This document shows positions 18,996 to 38,150 of a stretch of DNA of 64,000 nucleotides, one piece after another. The position numbers were made by a program, and so were the translations under genes. Under the pieces are notes generated by a model. That model had not been told where the DNA came from and searched no databases. It worked only from the letters and a program-made list of their open reading frames with translations. The stretch covers positions 403-64,402 of the forward strand of contig CAWGFO010000010.1 of assembly GCA_963821925.1 (NCBI GenBank), read 5' to 3'. The stretch's first letter is position 1. Each line of letters starts with the position of its first letter. This DNA is from an uncultured Actinomycetes bacterium. Its GTDB lineage: Bacteria; Actinomycetota; UBA4738; HRBIN12.

Positions 18996-20531
18996 GTGAT
19001 GGATGACGGTGCGGGGGCGGGGCGCGTGAGCGCCCCGCCCCTCGTCGTCATGGAGGGCATCACCAAACGGTTCCCCGGCGTCCTCGCGAACGACGACGTC
19101 ACGATCGACCTTCGTCCCGGCGAGGTCCACGCCCTGATCGGTGAGAACGGGGCGGGCAAGTCCACGCTGATGAGGGTCCTCTACGGCCTCTACCCGCCCA
19201 ATGAGGGGCGCATCACGGTCCGGGGCCAGGAGGTGAAGATCGGGTCGCCGCGCGACGCGATCGCCCTCGGGATCGGGATGGTCCATCAGCACTTCGTGCT
19301 GGTCGACCCGTTCACCGTGGCCGAGAACATCATCCTCGGGATGGAGGGTGGCCCGATCCTCGACAAGGAGGGGTCCGAGGCCAAGGTCGCCGAGCTGGCG
19401 GCGTCGTACGGCTTCGTGATCGACCCCTCCGCCGTCGTCGAGGACCTGTCGGTCGGTGAGGAACAACGGGTCGAGATCCTGAAGGCGCTCTACCGGGGCG
19501 TCGAGATCCTGATCCTCGACGAGCCCACGGCGGTGCTCACGCCCGCCGAGGCCAAGGACCTGTTCGAGAACCTCCGGAAGCTGCGCGACGACGGCAAGAC
19601 GATCGTGTTCATCAGCCACAAGCTGGACGAGGTGCTCGCGATCGCCGATCGCATCACGGTCCTTCGGCGCGGCGCCGTGGTGGGCGAGACCACGCCGGCC
19701 GAGACGAACAAGGCCAAGCTCGCCGAGATGATGGTGGGCCGACCCGTCCTCTTCCGTCTGGAGAAGCCCCAGGTCGAGCCGGGCGAGATCGCGTTGAGGG
19801 TGGACGATCTCCACGGAGGGCGTCTCCACGGTCTCTCGCTCGAGGTGCGCCGCGGCGAGATCGTCGGGGTCGCCGGGGTCGAGGGCAACGGCCAGCGCGA
19901 GCTCGCCGACGCGATCATGGGCCTCCGCACGTTGGAGAGCGGCCGTATCGAGCTCGACGGGCGCGACCTGCACGAGCTCACCACCGAGGAGATCCGCAAC
20001 GCCGGTGTGGCGTTCATCCCGGAGGACCGGCAGGACCAGGGCCTCGTCCTCAGCATGACGCTCTGGGAGAACACCGTGATCGGCCGGCACGACGACCCGG
20101 CGTTCTCGGGACGGTTCGGCTTACTGCTGCTCAAGAAGATCAAGGAGCTGGCCCATCGCCTGATCAAGGAGTTCGACATCCGAGCGCGGAGCATCGAGAT
20201 GTCGGCCCGAACCCTCTCGGGCGGTAACCAGCAGAAGCTGATCCTGGCGCGCGAGCTCGAGACCGATCCCGCGCTCCTGCTGGCGGCGCAGCCGACGCGC
20301 GGGCTCGACGTCGGCGCGATCGAGTTCGTCTGGAGCCAGATCCTCGAGCAGAAGGCGGCCGGCCGTGCGGTGCTGTTGATCTCGGCCGAGCTCGACGAGA
20401 TCTACGCCCTCTCGGACCGCATCGTGACCCTCTACGAGGGCCGCATCACGGGGGAGTACCCGCCCGACGCGCCGGCCGAGGACGTCGGCCGGGGCATGCT
20501 CGGCGGGGACACCGTGAAGGAGGCCAGCTGA
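18996..20531 (+). CDS. ABC transporter ATP-binding protein with two nucleotide-binding domains (BMP/ribose-type uptake ATPase).
   Basis: Two Walker A sites (GENGAGKST and, in NBD2, GVEGNGQ) and two signature motifs (LSVGEEQRV, LSGGNQQK). Confidence 0.9.
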   Translation: MMDDGAGAGRVSAPPLVVMEGITKRFPGVLANDDVTIDLRPGEVHALIGENGAGKSTLMRVLYGLYPPNEGRITVRGQEVKIGSPRDAIALGIGMVHQHFVLVDPFTVAENIILGMEGGPILDKEGSEAKVAELAASYGFVIDPSAVVEDLSVGEEQRVEILKALYRGVEILILDEPTAVLTPAEAKDLFENLRKLRDDGKTIVFISHKLDEVLAIADRITVLRRGAVVGETTPAETNKAKLAEMMVGRPVLFRLEKPQVEPGEIALRVDDLHGGRLHGLSLEVRRGEIVGVAGVEGNGQRELADAIMGLRTLESGRIELDGRDLHELTTEEIRNAGVAFIPEDRQDQGLVLSMTLWENTVIGRHDDPAFSGRFGLLLLKKIKELAHRLIKEFDIRARSIEMSARTLSGGNQQKLILARELETDPALLLAAQPTRGLDVGAIEFVWSQILEQKAAGRAVLLISAELDEIYALSDRIVTLYEGRITGEYPPDAPAEDVGRGMLGGDTVKEAS

Positions 20532-21730
20532 TGGCCTCCGCCGGCGCCGCGTTGCCCCAGGTGAAGCGGCGGGAGCGTCCCGAGTGGCTCGAGAACGTCG
20601 GCGGTCAGGTCGCCGCGCTCGTCGGCGCTCTTCTGATCGCGATGGCGGTGGGGTCGATCATCATCGTGCTCTACGGTGAGAGCCCGATCACGGTCTATTC
20701 CGCGATCCTCGAGGGCTCGCTCGGCGACAAGAACGGCTTCGGCTACGTGCTCGCCAACGCCGGCCCGCTCATCTTCTCCGCGCTCGCGGTGGCGGTCTGT
20801 TTCAAGGGCGGCATGTTCAACATCGGCGTGGAGGGGCAGTACATCGTCGCGATGGGGGTGGCGTCGTGGGCGGCGCTCAAGCTCGACTTCATCCCCGGCC
20901 CGCTTCTGATGATCGTGGTGATCCTGTTCGCGATCCTCGGCGGGATGGCCTACGCGTCGATCCCCGCGATCCTCAAGGTCAAGACCGGGGCGCACGAAGT
21001 GGTGACGACGATCATGCTGAACGGCGTCGCCGCGAGCCTCGTCGCCTTCATCATCCGGGGTCCGCTGCGGTACACCGACATCGGCGGCGGGTTCAACGTG
21101 AACCTGCGGACCGACCCGTTCCCCGACAACGCGGCGATCCCCGACCTCGGCCACCTCTTCGGGATCCGCACGAGCGTCCGGCTCTCGTGGGTGCTCCCGA
21201 TGGCGCTCGTCGCTGCGGCGATCGTGTGGTTCATCTTCAAGCGGATGCGGCTCGGCTACGAAGCGCGGGCGGTGGGCGCCTCGCCCGGCTCGGCGCTCGC
21301 CGGCGGGATCTCGATCGGCAAGGTCCAGATCCGGCTGTTCCTGCTCTCCGGGGCGCTGGCCGGCATGATCGGGGTCCAGCAGCTCTTCGCCGACCAGGGG
21401 TTCCTCCCGTCCGGCTACGAAGCCGGCATCGGGTTCCTCGGCATCGGCGTGGCCTTCCTCGGGCAGAACAACCCGGCGGGGATCGTGTTCGCCGCGGTGC
21501 TGTGGGGCGTCCTGGCCCGAGGGGAGACCTCGCTCCAGCTCCAGACCGACGTGCCGCGCGAGTTCGTGATCATCCTGCAGGGGATCTTGATCCTGTCGGT
21601 CGTGGTCACCTACCAGGTCGCACGACGACGGCTGTTCGCGCGGGAGCTGCGCCGCGCCGCGGAGGTCGAGGATCTCGGGGACGCCGCCGCCAGCGCCGAT
21701 GTCGAGGGCCTCGCGAAGGAGGACCGCTGA
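20531..21730 (+). CDS. ABC transporter permease (BMP-system permease 1).
   Basis: Polytopic membrane protein. ATGA overlap with the ATPase stop and TGATG overlap with the next permease. Confidence 0.85.
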   Translation: MASAGAALPQVKRRERPEWLENVGGQVAALVGALLIAMAVGSIIIVLYGESPITVYSAILEGSLGDKNGFGYVLANAGPLIFSALAVAVCFKGGMFNIGVEGQYIVAMGVASWAALKLDFIPGPLLMIVVILFAILGGMAYASIPAILKVKTGAHEVVTTIMLNGVAASLVAFIIRGPLRYTDIGGGFNVNLRTDPFPDNAAIPDLGHLFGIRTSVRLSWVLPMALVAAAIVWFIFKRMRLGYEARAVGASPGSALAGGISIGKVQIRLFLLSGALAGMIGVQQLFADQGFLPSGYEAGIGFLGIGVAFLGQNNPAGIVFAAVLWGVLARGETSLQLQTDVPREFVIILQGILILSVVVTYQVARRRLFARELRRAAEVEDLGDAAASADVEGLAKEDR

Positions 21731-22704
21731 TGTTCGGCGACCTCAGCGCCGCGCTCGGGATCGCGTTCACCTATTTCACGATCATCTACGTGACGGGCCT
21801 GGGTGGGCTGTACAGCGAACGATCGGGCATCGTGAACATCGGCCTCGAAGGCATGATGATCATCGGGACGGTCACCGGGTCGTGGGGGACGTTCTTCTTC
21901 ACGAGCCCGGATCACATGGGCTGGGGGCTGCCGTGGGGCCCGATCATGGGGATCGTGATCGGGATGATCGCGGGGGCGTTGTTCGCCTCGATCCATGCGC
22001 TCGCCACGGTCACCTTCAAGGTCGACCAGATCGTGTCGGGCGTGGTGATCAACCTCGTGGCCGTGGGCCTCGCACGGTTCCTCTCGTCGATCTTCTTCGG
22101 CCAGGCCACGCAGTCGGACTCGGGCCAGCCGCACCTGCACGTGATCGACATCCCGGGGTTATCGAGCCTGCCGCTCGGCCTCGGGCGGGCGTTCACGGGC
22201 TTATCGCCGATGGTGATCGTGGCGTTCCTGCTGGTGTTCCCGGTGACGTACTCCCTCTACAAGACCCGGTGGGGCCTCCGGCTGCGCTCCTGCGGCGAGA
22301 ACCCCGAGGCGGCGCGGGCCCTGGGCGTGCGCGTGGCCCCGCTCCGGTACCAGGGCGTGATGCTCTCGGGCGCGCTCGCCGGGTTCGCGGGGGCGTTCCT
22401 GGCCATCGAGGTCAACCTCAGCTGGAACGAGGGCCAGACGCAGGGCCTCGGGTTCATCGCGCTCGCCGCGCTCATCCTGTCCAACTGGAACCCGAAGCGC
22501 CTGATGCTGGCCGCGATGATCTTCGGCTTCGCACAGGCGATCCCGTACCGGCTCGCCGACGCGCCGATCGTCCGACTGATCCCGCCCGAGTTCGTCCGCA
22601 TGACGCCCTACATCGTCACGATCGTCGTGCTGGCCGGGTTCGTCGGCAAGGTCAGACCCCCGGCGGCCGCGGGCAAGGCGTACGAAGGCGGCGGCGCGCT
22701 CTAG
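21730..22704 (+). CDS. ABC transporter permease (BMP-system permease 2).
   Basis: MFGDLSAALGIAFTYFTIIYVTGLGGLYSERSGIVNIGLEGMM… is a typical branched-chain/nucleoside permease N-terminus. Confidence 0.85.
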   Translation: MFGDLSAALGIAFTYFTIIYVTGLGGLYSERSGIVNIGLEGMMIIGTVTGSWGTFFFTSPDHMGWGLPWGPIMGIVIGMIAGALFASIHALATVTFKVDQIVSGVVINLVAVGLARFLSSIFFGQATQSDSGQPHLHVIDIPGLSSLPLGLGRAFTGLSPMVIVAFLLVFPVTYSLYKTRWGLRLRSCGENPEAARALGVRVAPLRYQGVMLSGALAGFAGAFLAIEVNLSWNEGQTQGLGFIALAALILSNWNPKRLMLAAMIFGFAQAIPYRLADAPIVRLIPPEFVRMTPYIVTIVVLAGFVGKVRPPAAAGKAYEGGGAL

Positions 22705-22707
22705 GGA

Positions 22708-23331
22708 TCAGAAGGTCCCGTGGAGTCGGTCGCCGAAGTCCCCGAGACCCGGCAGGATGAACCCGACCTCGTTCAGCTGGCGGTCCAGCGCGCCCGCGAC
22801 GATCGGCACGTCGGGATGCTCGCGCTCGAGCAGGGCGACCCCCTCGGGGGCCGCCACCACGCAGATGAAGGTGATCGACGTGGGGTTCGCGTTGCGCCGC
22901 ACGTGCGTGATCGCGGCGCTGCCGGATCCGCCCGTCGCGAGCATCGGGTCGACGACCAGGGCACGACGGCCGTCCATCGGCGGCAGCTTCGCGTAATAGT
23001 CGCGGGGCTGCAGGGTGACCTCGTCGCGCTCCAGCCCGAGGTACCCGACGACGGTGTCGGGATACAGGTCGGTGACCGCGTCGAGCAGCCCGAGCCCGGC
23101 GCGGAGCACCGGGATCGCCACGAGCCGTTCCGAGATGCGCCGCGTTTCCATCGGCTCCATCGGTGTGTCGATCGCCACGCTCTCGGTCGCGAGGTCGCGG
23201 GTGGCCTCCATCACGAGGAGCCACCCCAGCCGGCGCGTGAGGGCCCGGAACTCCGCCGGGTCGGTGCCCGCGTTGCGCAGTCGTGAGAGCAGATCGAGGG
23301 CGAGCGGGTGGTCGAGCACCGTGAGCGACAT
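22708..23331 (-). CDS. upp: Uracil phosphoribosyltransferase.
   Basis: MSLTVLDHPLALDLLSRLRN… and …ALVVDPMLATGGSGSAAI… (PRPP-binding motif). Confidence 0.9.
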   Translation of the reverse strand: MSLTVLDHPLALDLLSRLRNAGTDPAEFRALTRRLGWLLVMEATRDLATESVAIDTPMEPMETRRISERLVAIPVLRAGLGLLDAVTDLYPDTVVGYLGLERDEVTLQPRDYYAKLPPMDGRRALVVDPMLATGGSGSAAITHVRRNANPTSITFICVVAAPEGVALLEREHPDVPIVAGALDRQLNEVGFILPGLGDFGDRLHGTF

Positions 23332-23398
23332 CGGCCGGATACTACGCGACCGACGGCGGCGCCCGTCACGCGTCGCGGGGGTCGGGCATGATGGAAAC

Positions 23399-24187
23399 GT
23401 GGAGGCTCGGTGGGTCGTGCTCCTGGTGATCGCGTGGCTGCTGCCGGCCTGCGCTGATCCGGCATCCGACGCGCCGACGACCGTGGGTAGCGTCACCCTC
23501 CTCACGCACGAGGCCACCGGCGACGGCGCCTACATGTCGGCCTTGGGTGGGGGACGGTTGGTGTTGCGCGACGGCTGCGTGGCGATGCGGGCGGAGGGCG
23601 GAGGTCCCGCCACGTTCATCCTGTGGGATGCGGGGTACGGCCTCCGCGAGCGTGAGGGCGTGGTCGAAGTGGTCGACCCTGACGGGGACCTCGTAGCCGC
23701 GATCGGCTCCCCGATCATGCTCGGTGGAGGGTTCGTCGATCTCGAAGTGGCCGACGACCAGGCCGAGGCGCCGATCCCCGAAGGCTGCCGCGACGACGGG
23801 GTCGAGCCATACTTCGTCGCCGCGCCCGACGCCTGGCCGTTCGCCGAGGCCGACGGGATCACGCTGCTCCGCCATCCGGGACAGGAGCTCTCGGGAGATC
23901 AGGCGCTGATCGAGGGCACGCTATCGATCGTGGGCGGCTGCATCGGGCTCGACGTCGACGGACCGTGGCTGGTGTGGCCCGTCGACTACGGGCTCAGCTC
24001 GAACGAGCCGCGTCAGGTCTGGGACGGCCGCCAGAGGGTCGTCGCCGAGCTCGGCGACACGGTCAGACTCGCGGGCGGCATCGGCGCGATGCCCAACCCA
24101 GACGCGATGCCCGGCGGCATCCCCGAGGGCTGCCGAGGAGACGGCGAGTCCTACTGGTACGTGGGCGAGATCGAGGTCGTCTCATGA
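23399..24187 (+). CDS. Lipoprotein of unknown function.
   Basis: GTG start, signal and lipobox (…VVLLVIAWLLPAC|AD). Acidic secreted domain; no family assignment. Confidence 0.5.
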   Translation: MEARWVVLLVIAWLLPACADPASDAPTTVGSVTLLTHEATGDGAYMSALGGGRLVLRDGCVAMRAEGGGPATFILWDAGYGLREREGVVEVVDPDGDLVAAIGSPIMLGGGFVDLEVADDQAEAPIPEGCRDDGVEPYFVAAPDAWPFAEADGITLLRHPGQELSGDQALIEGTLSIVGGCIGLDVDGPWLVWPVDYGLSSNEPRQVWDGRQRVVAELGDTVRLAGGIGAMPNPDAMPGGIPEGCRGDGESYWYVGEIEVVS

Positions 24188-24240
24188 CCCGCGACGGCCG
24201 CTTGCCAGGCCGCCCGGCGGTCTGCCACGATGTGCCGGTC

Positions 24241-24294
24241 ATGCAGCGTTCCTACGGCTTCGGGTTTACCTACGCGGGCATCCGCCCGGCGTAG
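24241..24294 (+). CDS. Candidate 17-codon leader peptide enriched in aromatic residues (MQRSYGFGFTYAGIRPA).
   Basis: Four of 17 codons are Tyr/Phe (tac ttc ttt tac). It sits 97 bp upstream of the DAHP synthase start and is followed by alternative hairpins. No strong Shine-Dalgarno sequence. Confidence 0.3.
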   Translation: MQRSYGFGFTYAGIRPA

Positions 24295-24322
24295 CCGCCT
24301 GCAGCCAGCCAGCAGACAGCGA

Positions 24323-24360
24323 CCCCGGGCGAGACACCCGGGGTTCTTCCTTCCCCGGGG
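24323..24360 (+). promoter_or_regulatory. Three G/C-rich segments that can form mutually exclusive hairpins (1:2 or 2:3) with a U/C-rich run between them. This could be the terminator of the upstream lipoprotein gene or an attenuator of aroG.
   Basis: ccccggg cgagaca cccgggg ttcttccttc ccccggg. Segments 1 and 3 are identical and both are complementary to segment 2. Confidence 0.4.
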
Positions 24361-24390
24361 TCCGTCCGGGCAGGACGGGAGGTTCCACAG

Positions 24391-25410
24391 ATGGTCGTCG
24401 TGATGAGGCAGGACGCGACCGACGCCGACGTCGAGGCGGTCGCCGAGAAGGCGCGGGCCGCCGGCGGCGAGGCGTTCGTCTCGCGCGGGGCCGTGCACAC
24501 GGTGGTCGGGCTGGTCGGCGACACCGAGCGGCTGCGGGCCGTGGACTGGCGCCAGCTCCACGGCGTCGACCACGTGATCCAGATCGGCAAGGCGTACAAG
24601 ATGGTCGCGCGCGACCTGCACCCCGAGCCCACCAGCGTGCTCGTGGGCTCAACCGCGGTGGGGCGCGAGACGTTCACGATCATCGCGGGCCCGTGCGCCG
24701 TCGAGAACGAGGACCAGGCGATGATCGCGTGCAAAGCGGCGGCCCAGGCGGGCGCGACGATCCTGCGTGGCGACGTCTACAAGCCGCGGACCTCCCCGTA
24801 CTCGTTCCAGGGTCTGGGGGAGCGGGGTCTCGAGATCCTGCAGGAGTGCCGACGGGAGACCGGGCTGCCGTTCATCGTCGAGGTCGTCGACATGAGCCAG
24901 GTCGAGCACGTGGCCGAGGTGGCCGACTGCATCCGGATCGGCACGCGGAACGCGCAGAACTTCGAGCTGCTGAAGGAGGTCGGGCTCACGAACAAGCCCG
25001 TGATGCTGAAGCGCGGCCTCGCGATGACGATCGACGAGTGGCTGCAAGCAGCCGAGTACGTCGCGCAGCGCGGGAACTCCGAGATCATCCTGTGCGAGCG
25101 GGGGATCCGGACGTTCGAGCCCTCCACCCGGAACACGCTGGATCTGGCGGGGATGGCGGTGGCCCAGCAGGAATCGCACCTGCCCGTGATCGTGGATCCG
25201 TCGCACGCGGTGGGCAAGCGCAACCTCGTCGGACCGATGGCGCTCGCCGCGGTCGCGGCCGGGGCCGACGCGGTGATGATCGACGTGCACGCCGAGCCCG
25301 AGCAGGCGCTGGTGGACGGTCCTCAGGCGCTCCTGCCGGAGGAGATCGTGGCGCTGGGCGAGCAGATCGCCCGGGTCGCGGAGGCAGTGGGTCGCCCGCT
25401 CAATCGGTGA
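24391..25410 (+). CDS. 3-deoxy-7-phosphoheptulonate (DAHP) synthase, type I-beta, with an N-terminal ferredoxin/ACT-like regulatory domain.
   Basis: …IIAGPCAVENEDQ…GDVYKPRTSPYSFQGLG…RIGTRNAQNF…VDPSHAVGKR… matches the KDSA/DAHP-I-beta catalytic core, preceded by a regulatory extension of about 75 aa. Confidence 0.9.
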   Translation: MVVVMRQDATDADVEAVAEKARAAGGEAFVSRGAVHTVVGLVGDTERLRAVDWRQLHGVDHVIQIGKAYKMVARDLHPEPTSVLVGSTAVGRETFTIIAGPCAVENEDQAMIACKAAAQAGATILRGDVYKPRTSPYSFQGLGERGLEILQECRRETGLPFIVEVVDMSQVEHVAEVADCIRIGTRNAQNFELLKEVGLTNKPVMLKRGLAMTIDEWLQAAEYVAQRGNSEIILCERGIRTFEPSTRNTLDLAGMAVAQQESHLPVIVDPSHAVGKRNLVGPMALAAVAAGADAVMIDVHAEPEQALVDGPQALLPEEIVALGEQIARVAEAVGRPLNR

Positions 25411-26241: not shown

Positions 26242-27423
26242 TCAGACGGTGCGGGCGAGCCAGAGCCGAGGCTCGCCGACCTCGGGGAGCGACGGCATCG
26301 CCTCGGCCGACTCCCACATGCGCGACAGCGTGGCCTCGTCGGTGAGCTCGACGACCGTGTCGCAGAACGCCCGTCCTGCCACGTACTGCTCGCGCTTCAT
26401 CTCCACGCCGAGCAGCCGCTCGAACACCGGATCGCCGGCCTCGCCCTCGCGGTAGCGGCGCATCGCCTCCTCGATCTGGCCGTACGAGCCCAGGAGCTCC
26501 GCCCCGAGCGCGTGCATCACGTGGTCGCCGTACCCTTCGGCCGCCGCCATGAACGCCTGGATCCGCGCCAGCTTCAGCCGCTGTTCGTCGTCGAGCTCGG
26601 CGCCGAACAGCCCCTCGTCGGACTCCATCAGGCCCTGCAGCGCCTCGGGGTCGGCGGCGTCCAGCCCCGCGAGCTTCGCCTGCATCCCCTCCACGTCGAT
26701 CGTGAGGGTCGTCAGGAAGTCGTCGAGCAGCTCCCGGAACCGTTCGCGCGCCCACGGGCGCGCGAACTCGAAGCGGTGCGTCACCTCGTGCAGCGCCACC
26801 CACGTCCGGAACTCGGTCGGGTCGAGCGACCAGTCCTTCTCGAACATCGCGATGTTCGGCACCACGAACAACAGGGTGCCCGGCCCACCCCGGGGCACGG
26901 CCACGTCGAACTGCCCCAGCACCCGCTGCGCGAGGAACCCGAGCACCTGTCCCACCTGCGTGCCCATCAGCAGTGGCGAGAGCTGGCCCATGAACCCGGC
27001 CATCTGCTGCATCTCCGGCGGGAGCTGCTCACGGGTGGCCCGGTCCATCGCCTCGCCGATCCGCTGTGCGGCCGGCTCGAGCAGCTCACGGAGGCTCTCC
27101 GCGTTCGCGGTCACCCACTCGGCACGCCGCACCGGGAGGACCTGCGCGACGTCGCCCGGCGCCTCCAGCCCGGTGAACCGCGCCACCTGCAGCTCCGCGA
27201 CGCGGACGGCGTCCTCGAAGACCTGTCGGTCGGCATCGGTGGGCTCGCGGTCGTCGCCCGCCTCCACGGCGCTCGCGATCGCCACCTGGCGGGCGAGCTC
27301 CCAGTTCACCGGGCCGCTCGACGACGACATCACGCGCTGCAGCTCCCGGAACAGCGGAGCGTCCTTGAACTGCTCGGGGTCACCCCCGAACGGGAACCCG
27401 AAGCCGGGTGGCATGCCGCTCAT
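26242..27423 (-). CDS. Zinc-dependent metalloprotease of the DUF2342 / F420-biosynthesis-associated type.
   Basis: HEXXH (…VALHEVTHRFEF…), and the length and architecture typical of the actinobacterial DUF2342 family. Confidence 0.7.
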   Translation of the reverse strand: MSGMPPGFGFPFGGDPEQFKDAPLFRELQRVMSSSSGPVNWELARQVAIASAVEAGDDREPTDADRQVFEDAVRVAELQVARFTGLEAPGDVAQVLPVRRAEWVTANAESLRELLEPAAQRIGEAMDRATREQLPPEMQQMAGFMGQLSPLLMGTQVGQVLGFLAQRVLGQFDVAVPRGGPGTLLFVVPNIAMFEKDWSLDPTEFRTWVALHEVTHRFEFARPWARERFRELLDDFLTTLTIDVEGMQAKLAGLDAADPEALQGLMESDEGLFGAELDDEQRLKLARIQAFMAAAEGYGDHVMHALGAELLGSYGQIEEAMRRYREGEAGDPVFERLLGVEMKREQYVAGRAFCDTVVELTDEATLSRMWESAEAMPSLPEVGEPRLWLARTV

Positions 27424-27907: not shown

Positions 27908-28915
27908 ATGGGCCGCGATCTCGCGATCGACCTCGGCACCGCGAACACGCTCGTCTACCGCCAGGGCGAGGGCATCATCTTCGACGAGCCCGCGGTCGTC
28001 GCGATGCACGGCGGCACCGGGGAGGTCCTCGCGATGGGCGAGGAGGCCTGGCAGATGATCGGAGGCGACTCGGGGAGCGTCGTCGCGGTCCGGCCGCTCC
28101 GCGCCGGCACGATGACCGAGTTCGACATCACGCAGCGGATGCTCGAGGTGGTGCTCCGGCGGGTCGGGGTCTCGCGGCTGATGCGGCCCCGCGTGCTCGC
28201 GTGCGTGCCGAGCCTGAGCTCCGAGGTCGAGAAGCGCGCGATCGAGGAGGCGATCCGGTTCGCGGGCGGCCGGCAGGTGACCCTCGTCGAGGAGCCGCTC
28301 GCCGCCGCGATCGGCGCCGGACTGCCCGTGCACGAACCGATCGGGAACCTCGTGGTCGACATCGGCGGCGGCCGCTCGGAGATGGCGGTCGTCTCGATGG
28401 GTGGCGTCGTGAGCGGTCGCTCGGTCACGATCGGCGGTTTCGATCTCGACGCGGCCGTGGCCGAGCACATCCGGACCGAGTACGGGGTGGCGATCGGCGA
28501 GAAGGCCGCCGAGGAGATCAAGATCGCGATCGGCTCGGCCTTCCCGGCGCCCGATCACAAGGCGGCGATCGTGATCGGGCGTGAGCTCGCCGGCGGGAAC
28601 ACCGTGGAGGTGAAGGTCACGGCCGACGAGGTCCGCCAGGCGATGGGCGTGCCGATCACGGGCATCGTCGAGGCGGCCCGGCTCTGCCTCGCGGAGGCGC
28701 CGCCGGAGCTCACGCACGACGTGCTCGAGACCGGCATGTTCCTCACCGGCGGCGGAAGCCTCCTGCGCGGGCTCGACATGCTGCTCGCGCAGGAATGCGA
28801 GGTCCCCGTGCACGCGACGGAGCGGCCGCTCGAAACGGTGGTAGCCGGCGCCGGCTACATGCTCGAACATCTCGCGGACTACCGGTCGGCGTTCCAGCTC
28901 GTGCGCCGGAAATGA
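27908..28915 (+). CDS. mreB: Actin-like rod-shape protein MreB (or an MreB-like paralogue).
   Basis: …LAIDLGTANTLVY…VVDIGGGRSEMAVVSMGGV…DLDAAV…GMFLTGGGSLLRGLD… shows all five actin-fold motifs. Confidence 0.85.
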   Translation: MGRDLAIDLGTANTLVYRQGEGIIFDEPAVVAMHGGTGEVLAMGEEAWQMIGGDSGSVVAVRPLRAGTMTEFDITQRMLEVVLRRVGVSRLMRPRVLACVPSLSSEVEKRAIEEAIRFAGGRQVTLVEEPLAAAIGAGLPVHEPIGNLVVDIGGGRSEMAVVSMGGVVSGRSVTIGGFDLDAAVAEHIRTEYGVAIGEKAAEEIKIAIGSAFPAPDHKAAIVIGRELAGGNTVEVKVTADEVRQAMGVPITGIVEAARLCLAEAPPELTHDVLETGMFLTGGGSLLRGLDMLLAQECEVPVHATERPLETVVAGAGYMLEHLADYRSAFQLVRRK

Positions 28916-38076: not shown

Positions 38077-38150
38077 TGCGGGGTGGAGCAGTCCGGTAGC
38101 TCGCTGGGCTCATAACCCAGAGGTCACAGGTTCAAATCCTGTCCCCGCGA
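38077..38150 (+). tRNA. tRNA-Met (anticodon CAT) with initiator features. No genomically encoded CCA.
   Basis: Cloverleaf read directly: acceptor tgcgggg/ccccgcg, D-stem gagc/gctc (A11:U24), anticodon stem ctggg/cccag with three consecutive G:C pairs next to the loop ctCATaa, T-arm acagg-ttcaaat-cctgt, discriminator A. Closely resembles actinobacterial tRNA-fMet. Confidence 0.85.

Follow-up and report, generated by a model that had tools for sequence, protein, structure and literature searches.

A candidate leader-peptide attenuator of DAHP synthase in uncultured soil Actinomycetota

The stretch of DNA analyzed here, called the window throughout, is 64,000 nucleotides (nt) long and comes from contig CAWGFO010000010.1 (assembly GCA_963821925.1, positions 403 to 64,402) of an uncultured Actinomycetes bacterium. 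It contains a gene for 3-deoxy-D-arabino-heptulosonate 7-phosphate synthase (DAHPS), the entry enzyme of the shikimate pathway, preceded by a leader (24241-24390) with a short open reading frame (ORF) and several complementary GC-rich segments. The leader is likely, at a probability of roughly 0.8, to be a ribosome-mediated transcription attenuator of DAHPS set by the charging of aromatic tRNAs. This reading is supported because the leader ORF is conserved, alternative pairings are available, the helices covary and the predicted folding depends on the position of a ribosome footprint. The element appears to be a previously undescribed family in uncultured soil Actinomycetota; the control is of a known kind and its mechanism would be textbook attenuation. 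We infer the transcription start site (TSS), actual termination and the physiological response. The features of the leader and its gene are listed below; SD stands for Shine-Dalgarno, MFE for minimum free energy and aa for amino acids.

24202-24207, + strand: -35 promoter element, TTGCCA
24226-24231, + strand: -10 promoter element, CACGAT (cAnnAT)
24241-24294, + strand: leader peptide ORF MQRSYGFGFTYAGIRPA, 17 codons, from the ATG at 24241 to the TAG at 24292-24294
24270-24279, + strand: segment 1 (CUACGCGGGC), 5' arm of the 1:2 hairpin, overlapping Tyr11 and Gly13
24281-24294, + strand: segment 2 (UCCGCCCGGCGUAG; core also given as GCCCGGCGUAG, 24284-24294), 3' arm of the 1:2 hairpin or 5' arm of the antiterminator, containing the UAG stop
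24291-24302 pairing with 24312-24323, + strand: linker helix, which extends the antiterminator, from folding of each sequence
24323-24329, + strand: segment 3 (CCCCGGG), 5' arm of the terminator; with loop bases to 24334, 3' arm of the antiterminator
24337-24343, + strand: segment 4 (CCCGGGG), 3' arm of the terminator hairpin
24344-24352, + strand: terminator tail UUCUUCCUU, U-rich and pyrimidine-rich
24353-24370, + strand: segments 5 and 6 (CCCCGGGG ... CCGGG; segment 5, CCCCGGGG, at 24353-24360), which fold into a local hairpin by MFE in most of the loci
24377-24382, + strand: SD sequence of DAHPS, GGGAGG, before the ATG at 24391
24391-25410, + strand: DAHPS, type I-beta, 339 aa; Pfam DAHP_synth_1 PF00793 (3e-76) and ferredoxin-like N-domain PF18152 (1.4e-17)

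In the proposed mechanism, transcription would start from the conserved promoter, the mRNA would open on the leader AUG or no more than ~3 nt from it, and the leader would be translated without an SD sequence. When Phe-, Tyr- and, in most relatives, Trp-tRNA are ample, the ribosome should reach the UAG and cover segment 2. Segment 3 would then pair with segment 4, and the GC hairpin with its U-rich tail would terminate transcription ~40 nt before the DAHPS start codon. When an aromatic tRNA is scarce, the ribosome would stall at codons 7-11 and cover segment 1, leaving segment 2 free. Segment 2 could then pair with the emerging segment 3 to form the antiterminator (about -24 kcal/mol), and the polymerase would enter the gene. 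With no translation, the 1:2 and 3:4 hairpins would both form and transcription would be expected to terminate.

Leader peptide and promoter

A preliminary description of this DNA had proposed a 17-codon leader ORF with four Tyr/Phe codons, and such an ORF does lie at 24241-24294. The aromatic codons are Tyr5 (24253), Phe7 (24259), Phe9 (24265) and Tyr11 (24271), so that 4 of the 17 residues are aromatic. A content of at least 4/17 occurs in just 2 of the 94 ATG-initiated ORFs of 14-22 codons in the window. Scanning genomes with the DAHPS protein gave 80 orthologous loci with 77-98% protein identity, all of them from metagenome-assembled genomes (MAGs) of uncultured Actinomycetota or Actinomycetes; a homologue search likewise yielded uncultured relatives only, with identities of at least 79%. 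When the 200 nt upstream of each gene were inspected, 79 of the 80 proved to carry the leader ORF in frame. Its length is 16 codons in 5 loci, 17 in 66 and 18 in 8, and every size change is a multiple of three, which keeps the frame. Among the 79 loci there are 70 different leader peptides, which have G-x-W-F-x-Y-F-G as their conserved aromatic core. Of the stop codons, 77 are TAG and two are TAA; TAG is probably fixed because it lies within segment 2.

Aromatic residues make up 30% of the leader residues, as against 3.5% in DAHPS and 5.4% in random ORFs of 14-22 codons in the window. Trp, Phe and Tyr are all present in 60 of the 79 leaders. Counted back from the stop codon, position stop-10 is aromatic in 80% of the leaders (Trp in 58/79), stop-9 in 91% (Phe or Tyr) and stop-7 in 80% (chiefly Tyr). 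Positions stop-14, -13, -11, -8 and -6 are aromatic in 44-54%, and codons 1-2 and positions stop-5, -3, -2 and -1 in 0%. The Phe/Tyr codons noted in the window are thus kept in the orthologues, with Trp added in most. Phe and Tyr are swapped among the leaders, and there is synonymous variation between TTT and TTC and between TAT and TAC. The invariant non-aromatic positions, Gly at stop-5 and Pro at stop-2, fall within the pairing segments GGG and CCCGG and show no change at their wobble bases; other positions without a structural role vary. This pattern is as expected if selection acts on the class of amino acid at the sensing codons and on the RNA sequence elsewhere. The leader is a short, presumably translated ORF enriched in codons for the end products of the pathway that it precedes, as in attenuators of this class, which agrees with the aromatic attenuator suggested in the preliminary description.

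In the window, the codon at 24262-24264 is GGG where most relatives have TGG (Trp), and the leader codes only for Tyr and Phe. In the closest clade this codon is GGG in the window and in locus L001 and CGG in L003, and TGG is retained in L002; these are single first-base changes. Changes of this kind to GGG or CGG would remove Trp sensing, and the window copy, having lost its Trp codon, should respond to Phe and Tyr only.

The leader ATG has no SD sequence ahead of it, as had been noted before, and the lack is explained by a conserved promoter whose end lies only 7-10 nt from the ATG, since the mRNA would be leaderless or nearly so. The -35 element has the form TTGNCA in 76 of the 79 loci (T, T, G, C and A columns invariant). 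The -10 element has invariant A2, A5 and T6. In the window the two are separated by an 18-nt spacer (17-18 nt in 78/79 loci), and the -10 element lies 9 nt before the leader ATG (7-10 nt, mode 9, across the loci). Judging from the position of the promoter, the transcript probably starts on the leader AUG or no more than ~3 nt away. A scan for consensus promoters and terminators gave no call for this promoter or for the terminator. The promoter was missed because it deviates from TTGACA/TATAAT; the terminator was missed because its stem probably extends into the first Us, which leaves too few Ts in the tail that is scored. There is precedent for leader peptides without an SD sequence in actinobacteria. 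The ilvB leader peptide of Corynebacterium glutamicum is made without a ribosome-binding site (RBS), according to Morbach 2000 as cited in PMC4046766, and leaderless polycysteine upstream ORFs (uORFs) are described for mycobacteria in bioRxiv 10.1101/834739 (background in PMC4633059).

Alternative RNA structures

The three complementary CCCCGGG-type segments of the preliminary description are located where it had put them (24323-24329, 24337-24343 and 24353-24360). It had also proposed mutually exclusive hairpins, and both of these can form; however, the third CCCCGGG does not appear to be the operative alternative, a role that falls instead to the CCCGG shortly ahead of the leader stop codon. 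The candidate intrinsic terminator is an invariant GC hairpin of 7-9 bp with a predicted stability of -17 to -23 kcal/mol and a covarying closing pair; its U-tract is interrupted, and termination there is a prediction. Segments 3 and 4 are essentially invariant over the 79 loci, with three single-base exceptions. The 9 nt past the stem have a mean U fraction of 0.56 across the loci, compared to 0.15 T in the window, and the hairpin pattern occurs once in the 64 kb against an expectation of 0.06.

The antiterminator pairs 24281-24302 with 24312-24334 around a core of CCCGG (24285-24289) with CCGGG (24325-24329). It therefore uses the 5' arm of the terminator together with the 3' end of the leader ORF. 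The CCCGG of segment 2 is nearly invariant, including its third-codon positions, the exceptions being CCUGG in 3 loci and CCGGG in 1. The linker helix that extends the antiterminator is poorly alignable and gives no clean covariation. The 1:2 helix is CUAC..GGGC with GCCC..GUAG, a pairing that would sequester segment 2, and the regulatory codons lie in or near segment 1. The median predicted stability is -13.2 kcal/mol for the 1:2 hairpin (-16.2 in the window), -24.2 for the 2:3 antiterminator including the linker helix (-23.7 in the window) and -19.8 for the 3:4 terminator (-17.0 in the window). The order of predicted stability, with 1:2 plus 3:4 above 2:3 and 2:3 above 3:4 alone, is the classical hierarchy of an attenuator.

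Covariation was counted on explicit structures instead of on an RNAalifold consensus. Over the whole leader, RNAalifold recovered the terminator, only fragments of the 1:2 hairpin, and in the antiterminator alignment only 5 invariant pairs, the reasons being a variable linker that MAFFT aligns wrongly and a 1:2 hairpin with two registers. The terminator closing pair, 90:114, is AU in 57 sequences and GC in 21, with none broken. The outer stem of 1:2 is 87% paired, and its pair 40:56 shows compensatory changes (GC 32, UG 16, UA 11). The antiterminator is 84.7% paired. Its pairs 49:100 and 50:99 join leader codon 15 to bases of the terminator loop that have no role in the terminator itself. Two structures were tested, 1:2 plus terminator and the antiterminator, and the covariation score of each is above all 500 shuffles; sliding the registers lowers pairing from 85-89% to 60% or less. 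Covariation thus gives moderate support for the helices, limited by the relatedness of the sequences and by core pairs that do not vary.

The effect of a ribosome was modeled by a footprint scan that folds nascent RNA ending short of segment 4. With the A-site anywhere from stop-11 to stop-7, segment 3 is already paired to segment 2 at a median probability of 0.94-0.95; this drops to 0.40 for stop-6 and to 0 for stop-3 through the stop codon. In the window the probability is 0.44 with the A-site at Tyr5, 0.78 at Phe7, 0.85 at Phe9 and 0.85 at Tyr11, and 0.03 with no ribosome. These models suggest that stalling of a ribosome within the aromatic cluster lets the antiterminator form in advance, and that segment 3 is free for the terminator when the ribosome is at the stop codon or absent. 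Folding with and without the footprint had been proposed as a check on the attenuator. In nascent RNA the predicted antitermination is confined to A-sites on the aromatic codons, and in an equilibrium fold of the complete leader the effect is partial, with the terminator probability falling only at stop-10 and stop-9 (medians 0.33 and 0.13). Equilibrium folding of the complete RNA is unsuitable here because attenuation is kinetic.

Several points weigh against the attenuator. Every relative is an uncultured MAG or a metagenome contig. The tail (UUCUUCCUU) has an interrupted U-tract, and a simple consensus terminator scan gave no call. The core pairs of the terminator and the antiterminator are invariant, so the covariation rests on a few flanking pairs in related sequences. 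A modal TSS, at the 7th base after the -10 element, would give the SD-less leader AUG a 5' untranslated region of 1-3 nt. The ribosome-free probability of 2:3 pairing is still ~0.4 in many loci, and equilibrium folding of the complete leader keeps the terminator favoured at several stall positions. The model depends on kinetic, co-transcriptional competition.

Two other observations concern the RNA around the terminator. The spacer between the leader stop and the terminator (24295-24322) is C-rich and G-poor with AGCC repeats (AGCCAGCCAGCAG), and could in principle be a Rho loading site. The tail at 24344-24352 is complementary to the purine-rich SD region (24371-24382) in many loci, at about -10 kcal/mol; this complementarity is generic and shows no covariation in a swap control.

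Association with DAHPS and locus context

Metagenome contigs were also scanned with a pattern of the RNA architecture, consisting of CCCGGNGTAG, a linker, CCCCGGG, a loop and CCCGGGG. The pattern represents segment 2, the TAG stop, the linker and the terminator, and includes neither aromatic codons nor DAHPS sequence. The scan returned 120 stretches, of which 116 were scorable; in the other 4 the leader ran past the contig end. DAHPS lies 32-69 nt downstream in 101 of the 116, with 56-98% identity. All 101 of these copies have 3-7 aromatic residues in the 14 codons preceding the stop, and 83 of them have Trp, Phe and Tyr together. Five matches without DAHPS downstream have 0-1 aromatic residues and resemble chance matches, and the remaining 10 are truncated contigs. 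A regulon search in metagenomes gave no copy of the RNA architecture ahead of any gene besides DAHPS. The element is thus tied specifically to DAHPS and reaches well beyond the first 80 loci.

The element also stays with DAHPS whatever gene lies upstream. A divergent upp is the closest gene found upstream in 61 of the 80 loci. Its start is 39-133 nt from the leader ATG in ~55 loci, where it abuts the leader directly; it is 313 nt away in L008, where the match is N-terminally truncated, and 800-1,060 nt away in L001, L020, L039, L053 and L059. A co-directional ORF of 268 aa lies between upp and the leader only in the window, L001, L039, L053 and L059 (the window and 4 of the 80 loci). In the window this ORF lacks its own terminator ahead of the leader promoter, and 54 nt separate its end from the leader ATG. 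The hairpin belongs to the DAHPS leader because it is kept where the divergent upp lies upstream and the 268-aa ORF is lacking. An incidental effect of the hairpin in the window would be to block read-through out of the 268-aa ORF. An untranslated leader is predicted to default to 1:2 plus 3:4. A longer + strand ORF of 390 aa (23015-24187) was considered as the upstream gene and rejected. It is a composite whose first ~110 codons are an antisense shadow of upp, and its N-terminal conservation in tblastn reflects the minus-strand upp.

A GGAGG-like sequence is found 9-20 nt before the DAHPS ATG across the loci (start of the best 6-mer; typically 10-15 nt). In L080 (2925-3000), and also in L035, L044, L047 and L063, there are 2-4 tandem repeats of ~15 nt (GCCGAGGAGGTCnnG) between the terminator and the DAHPS start, each holding an SD-like GGAGG. 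L055 (2988-3001) is the sole locus without leader, promoter and terminator; its upp start is 12 nt from the DAHPS ATG. This absence could be a deletion or an assembly artefact.

Other features of the window are as follows.

20531-22701: two branched-chain amino-acid ATP-binding cassette (ABC) permease components, PF02653
22711-23517, - strand: upp, uracil phosphoribosyltransferase, PF14681 (3.5e-63)
~23381-24184, + strand: co-directional upstream gene, 268 aa; signal peptide, LPAC lipobox, no Pfam match
26245-27423, - strand: Zincin_2 metallopeptidase
27908-28912: MreB
38077-38150: tRNA, the only gathering-level Rfam match in the window

No further aromatic-pathway gene and no second copy of the leader architecture were seen in the 64 kb window.

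Alternative explanations and related systems

The preliminary description placed the switch further downstream, with the choice between 3:4 (24323-24343) and 4:5 (24337-24360) deciding expression. The two hairpins are both possible and are similar in predicted stability (-17.0 and -15.4 kcal/mol), and forcing 2:3 together with a stalled ribosome brings 4:5 into the MFE structures of the window, L007 and L039. However, the terminator tail precedes segment 5, which would be untranscribed when termination is decided and is less conserved than segments 2-4. The choice between these hairpins also has no link to the position of the leader ribosome; segment 2 provides such a link, and it covaries with segment 3 and the loop. 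A switch of this kind is therefore very unlikely. Control might instead be dual or purely translational. In the terminator state the tail and segment 5 would pair with segment 6 and the SD sequence, and 4:5 would free the SD sequence upon antitermination. The MFE structure of the downstream region does pair the tail with the SD region in many loci, and the probability that the SD sequence is unpaired rises from 0.31 with the terminator enforced to 0.49 with the antiterminator and a stalled ribosome, being higher in 64 of 79 loci. The difference is gone without the ribosome mask (0.30), though, and the loci are phylogenetically non-independent. In the swap control the native tail and RBS pair at -10.1 kcal/mol and non-native combinations at -9.8 (native better in 45/79), and the downstream region is no more stable than its shuffles (median z = -0.51). 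Translational control of either form is thus unlikely, and a translational relay was judged unsupported after the constrained folding, the tail/RBS swap and the downstream z-score. A broader proposal is unlikely as well. It combines an SD-less leader that integrates Trp, Phe and Tyr tRNA charging at the shikimate entry enzyme with a six-segment relay (1:2, 2:3, 3:4, 4:5, 5:6/SD) that gates DAHPS translation; if true, the relay would couple transcriptional and translational attenuation.

The leader could also owe its features to something other than attenuation of DAHPS. The hairpin might be the terminator of the co-directional gene upstream, as the preliminary description had allowed for the lipoprotein gene, and the small ORF might be fortuitous or encode an independent small peptide. 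In the window the ORF at 23381-24184 has no terminator of its own, read-through would stop at 24343, and the hairpin may double as its terminator. As a general explanation this fails in most loci, since that ORF is found in only 5, and leader and hairpin are conserved although a divergent upp is the closest gene found upstream in 61 of the 80, within 39-133 nt of the leader ATG in ~55 of them; in addition, the leader is separated from the upstream gene by a conserved promoter. The conserved Gly at stop-5 and Pro at stop-2 of the peptide lie in pairing segments with fixed wobbles, which points to constraint on the RNA rather than on the peptide. This explanation is extremely unlikely. Even less credible is a riboswitch, a T-box or an attenuator bound by a TRAP-type protein. 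Aromatic pathway genes in Firmicutes use T-boxes and TRAP, and no feature in support of any of the three was found here. The 801-nt region gave no Rfam match even at E<=10, with best scores of 14-16 bits against gathering scores of 40-70. The T-box model had no match in the region at E<=10 or in the whole window at its gathering score, and the leader families (Phe, Trp, His, Leu, Thr and Leu/Phe leader) had none in 23900-24700 at E<=10. The element is only ~110 nt long and mostly coding, too short for a T-box, and it lacks GAG/UAG triplet repeats.

With attenuation by a leader peptide as the preferred reading, the closest known analogue is aroR-aroF of C. glutamicum, by functional analogy. The attenuator there was first predicted in PMC4046766. 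Its Phe-Tyr-Phe leader peptide lies upstream of a DAHPS gene, and stalling under Phe limitation raises transcription, according to the account of Neshat et al. 2014 given in PMC11802643. Both systems are actinobacterial and have a short leader with an aromatic run directly before the DAHPS gene. The window enzyme is type I-beta with a ferredoxin-like N-domain, whereas C. glutamicum aroF is, we assume, a type I-alpha enzyme. The aromatic cluster here is also longer (3-8 residues) and usually contains Trp, and the host is an uncultured soil actinobacterium.

The architecture and the 1:2/2:3/3:4 logic resemble those of pheL-pheA (Rfam Phe_leader) and trpL-trp (Trp_leader, RF00513) of Escherichia coli, with regulatory codons in segment 1, the stop codon beside segment 2, and a GC hairpin with a U-rich tail as 3:4. 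Unlike these leaders, the present one has no covariance-model match, no SD sequence and an interrupted U-tract, and it mixes three amino acids rather than repeating one. The target differs too, since the enzyme that would be attenuated here is the entry to the common pathway; the E. coli DAHPS genes are controlled by the repressors TyrR and TrpR and are not attenuated (PMC11802643). The SD-less or leaderless leaders of other actinobacteria, ilvB and the mycobacterial polycysteine uORFs, are alike in being translated without an RBS from the transcript 5' end and in having a codon run that matches the pathway product; they sense other amino acids. The polycysteine uORFs are described as attenuators of operonic gene expression in bioRxiv 10.1101/834739. 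A 2005 comparative survey of actinobacterial attenuators covers trp, ilvB, cys, leuA and T-box elements, and has no entry for an attenuator of DAHPS or of aromatic pathway entry (PMC1262725).

The mixed Trp/Phe/Tyr sensor would extend DAHPS attenuation past its single experimentally studied case, aroR-aroF of C. glutamicum. It would be a clean natural example of multi-amino-acid sensing, and the conceptual surprise is modest. The ~180 natural variants provide material for a covariance model or Rfam family, help in the annotation of MAGs, and can serve actinobacterial engineering as compact aromatic-responsive parts. Sensing at the RNA level would add to any allosteric control through the ferredoxin-like N-domain of the enzyme, and the element offers a testable account of how carbon entry into aromatic amino acid synthesis may be controlled in an abundant lineage of uncultured soil actinobacteria.

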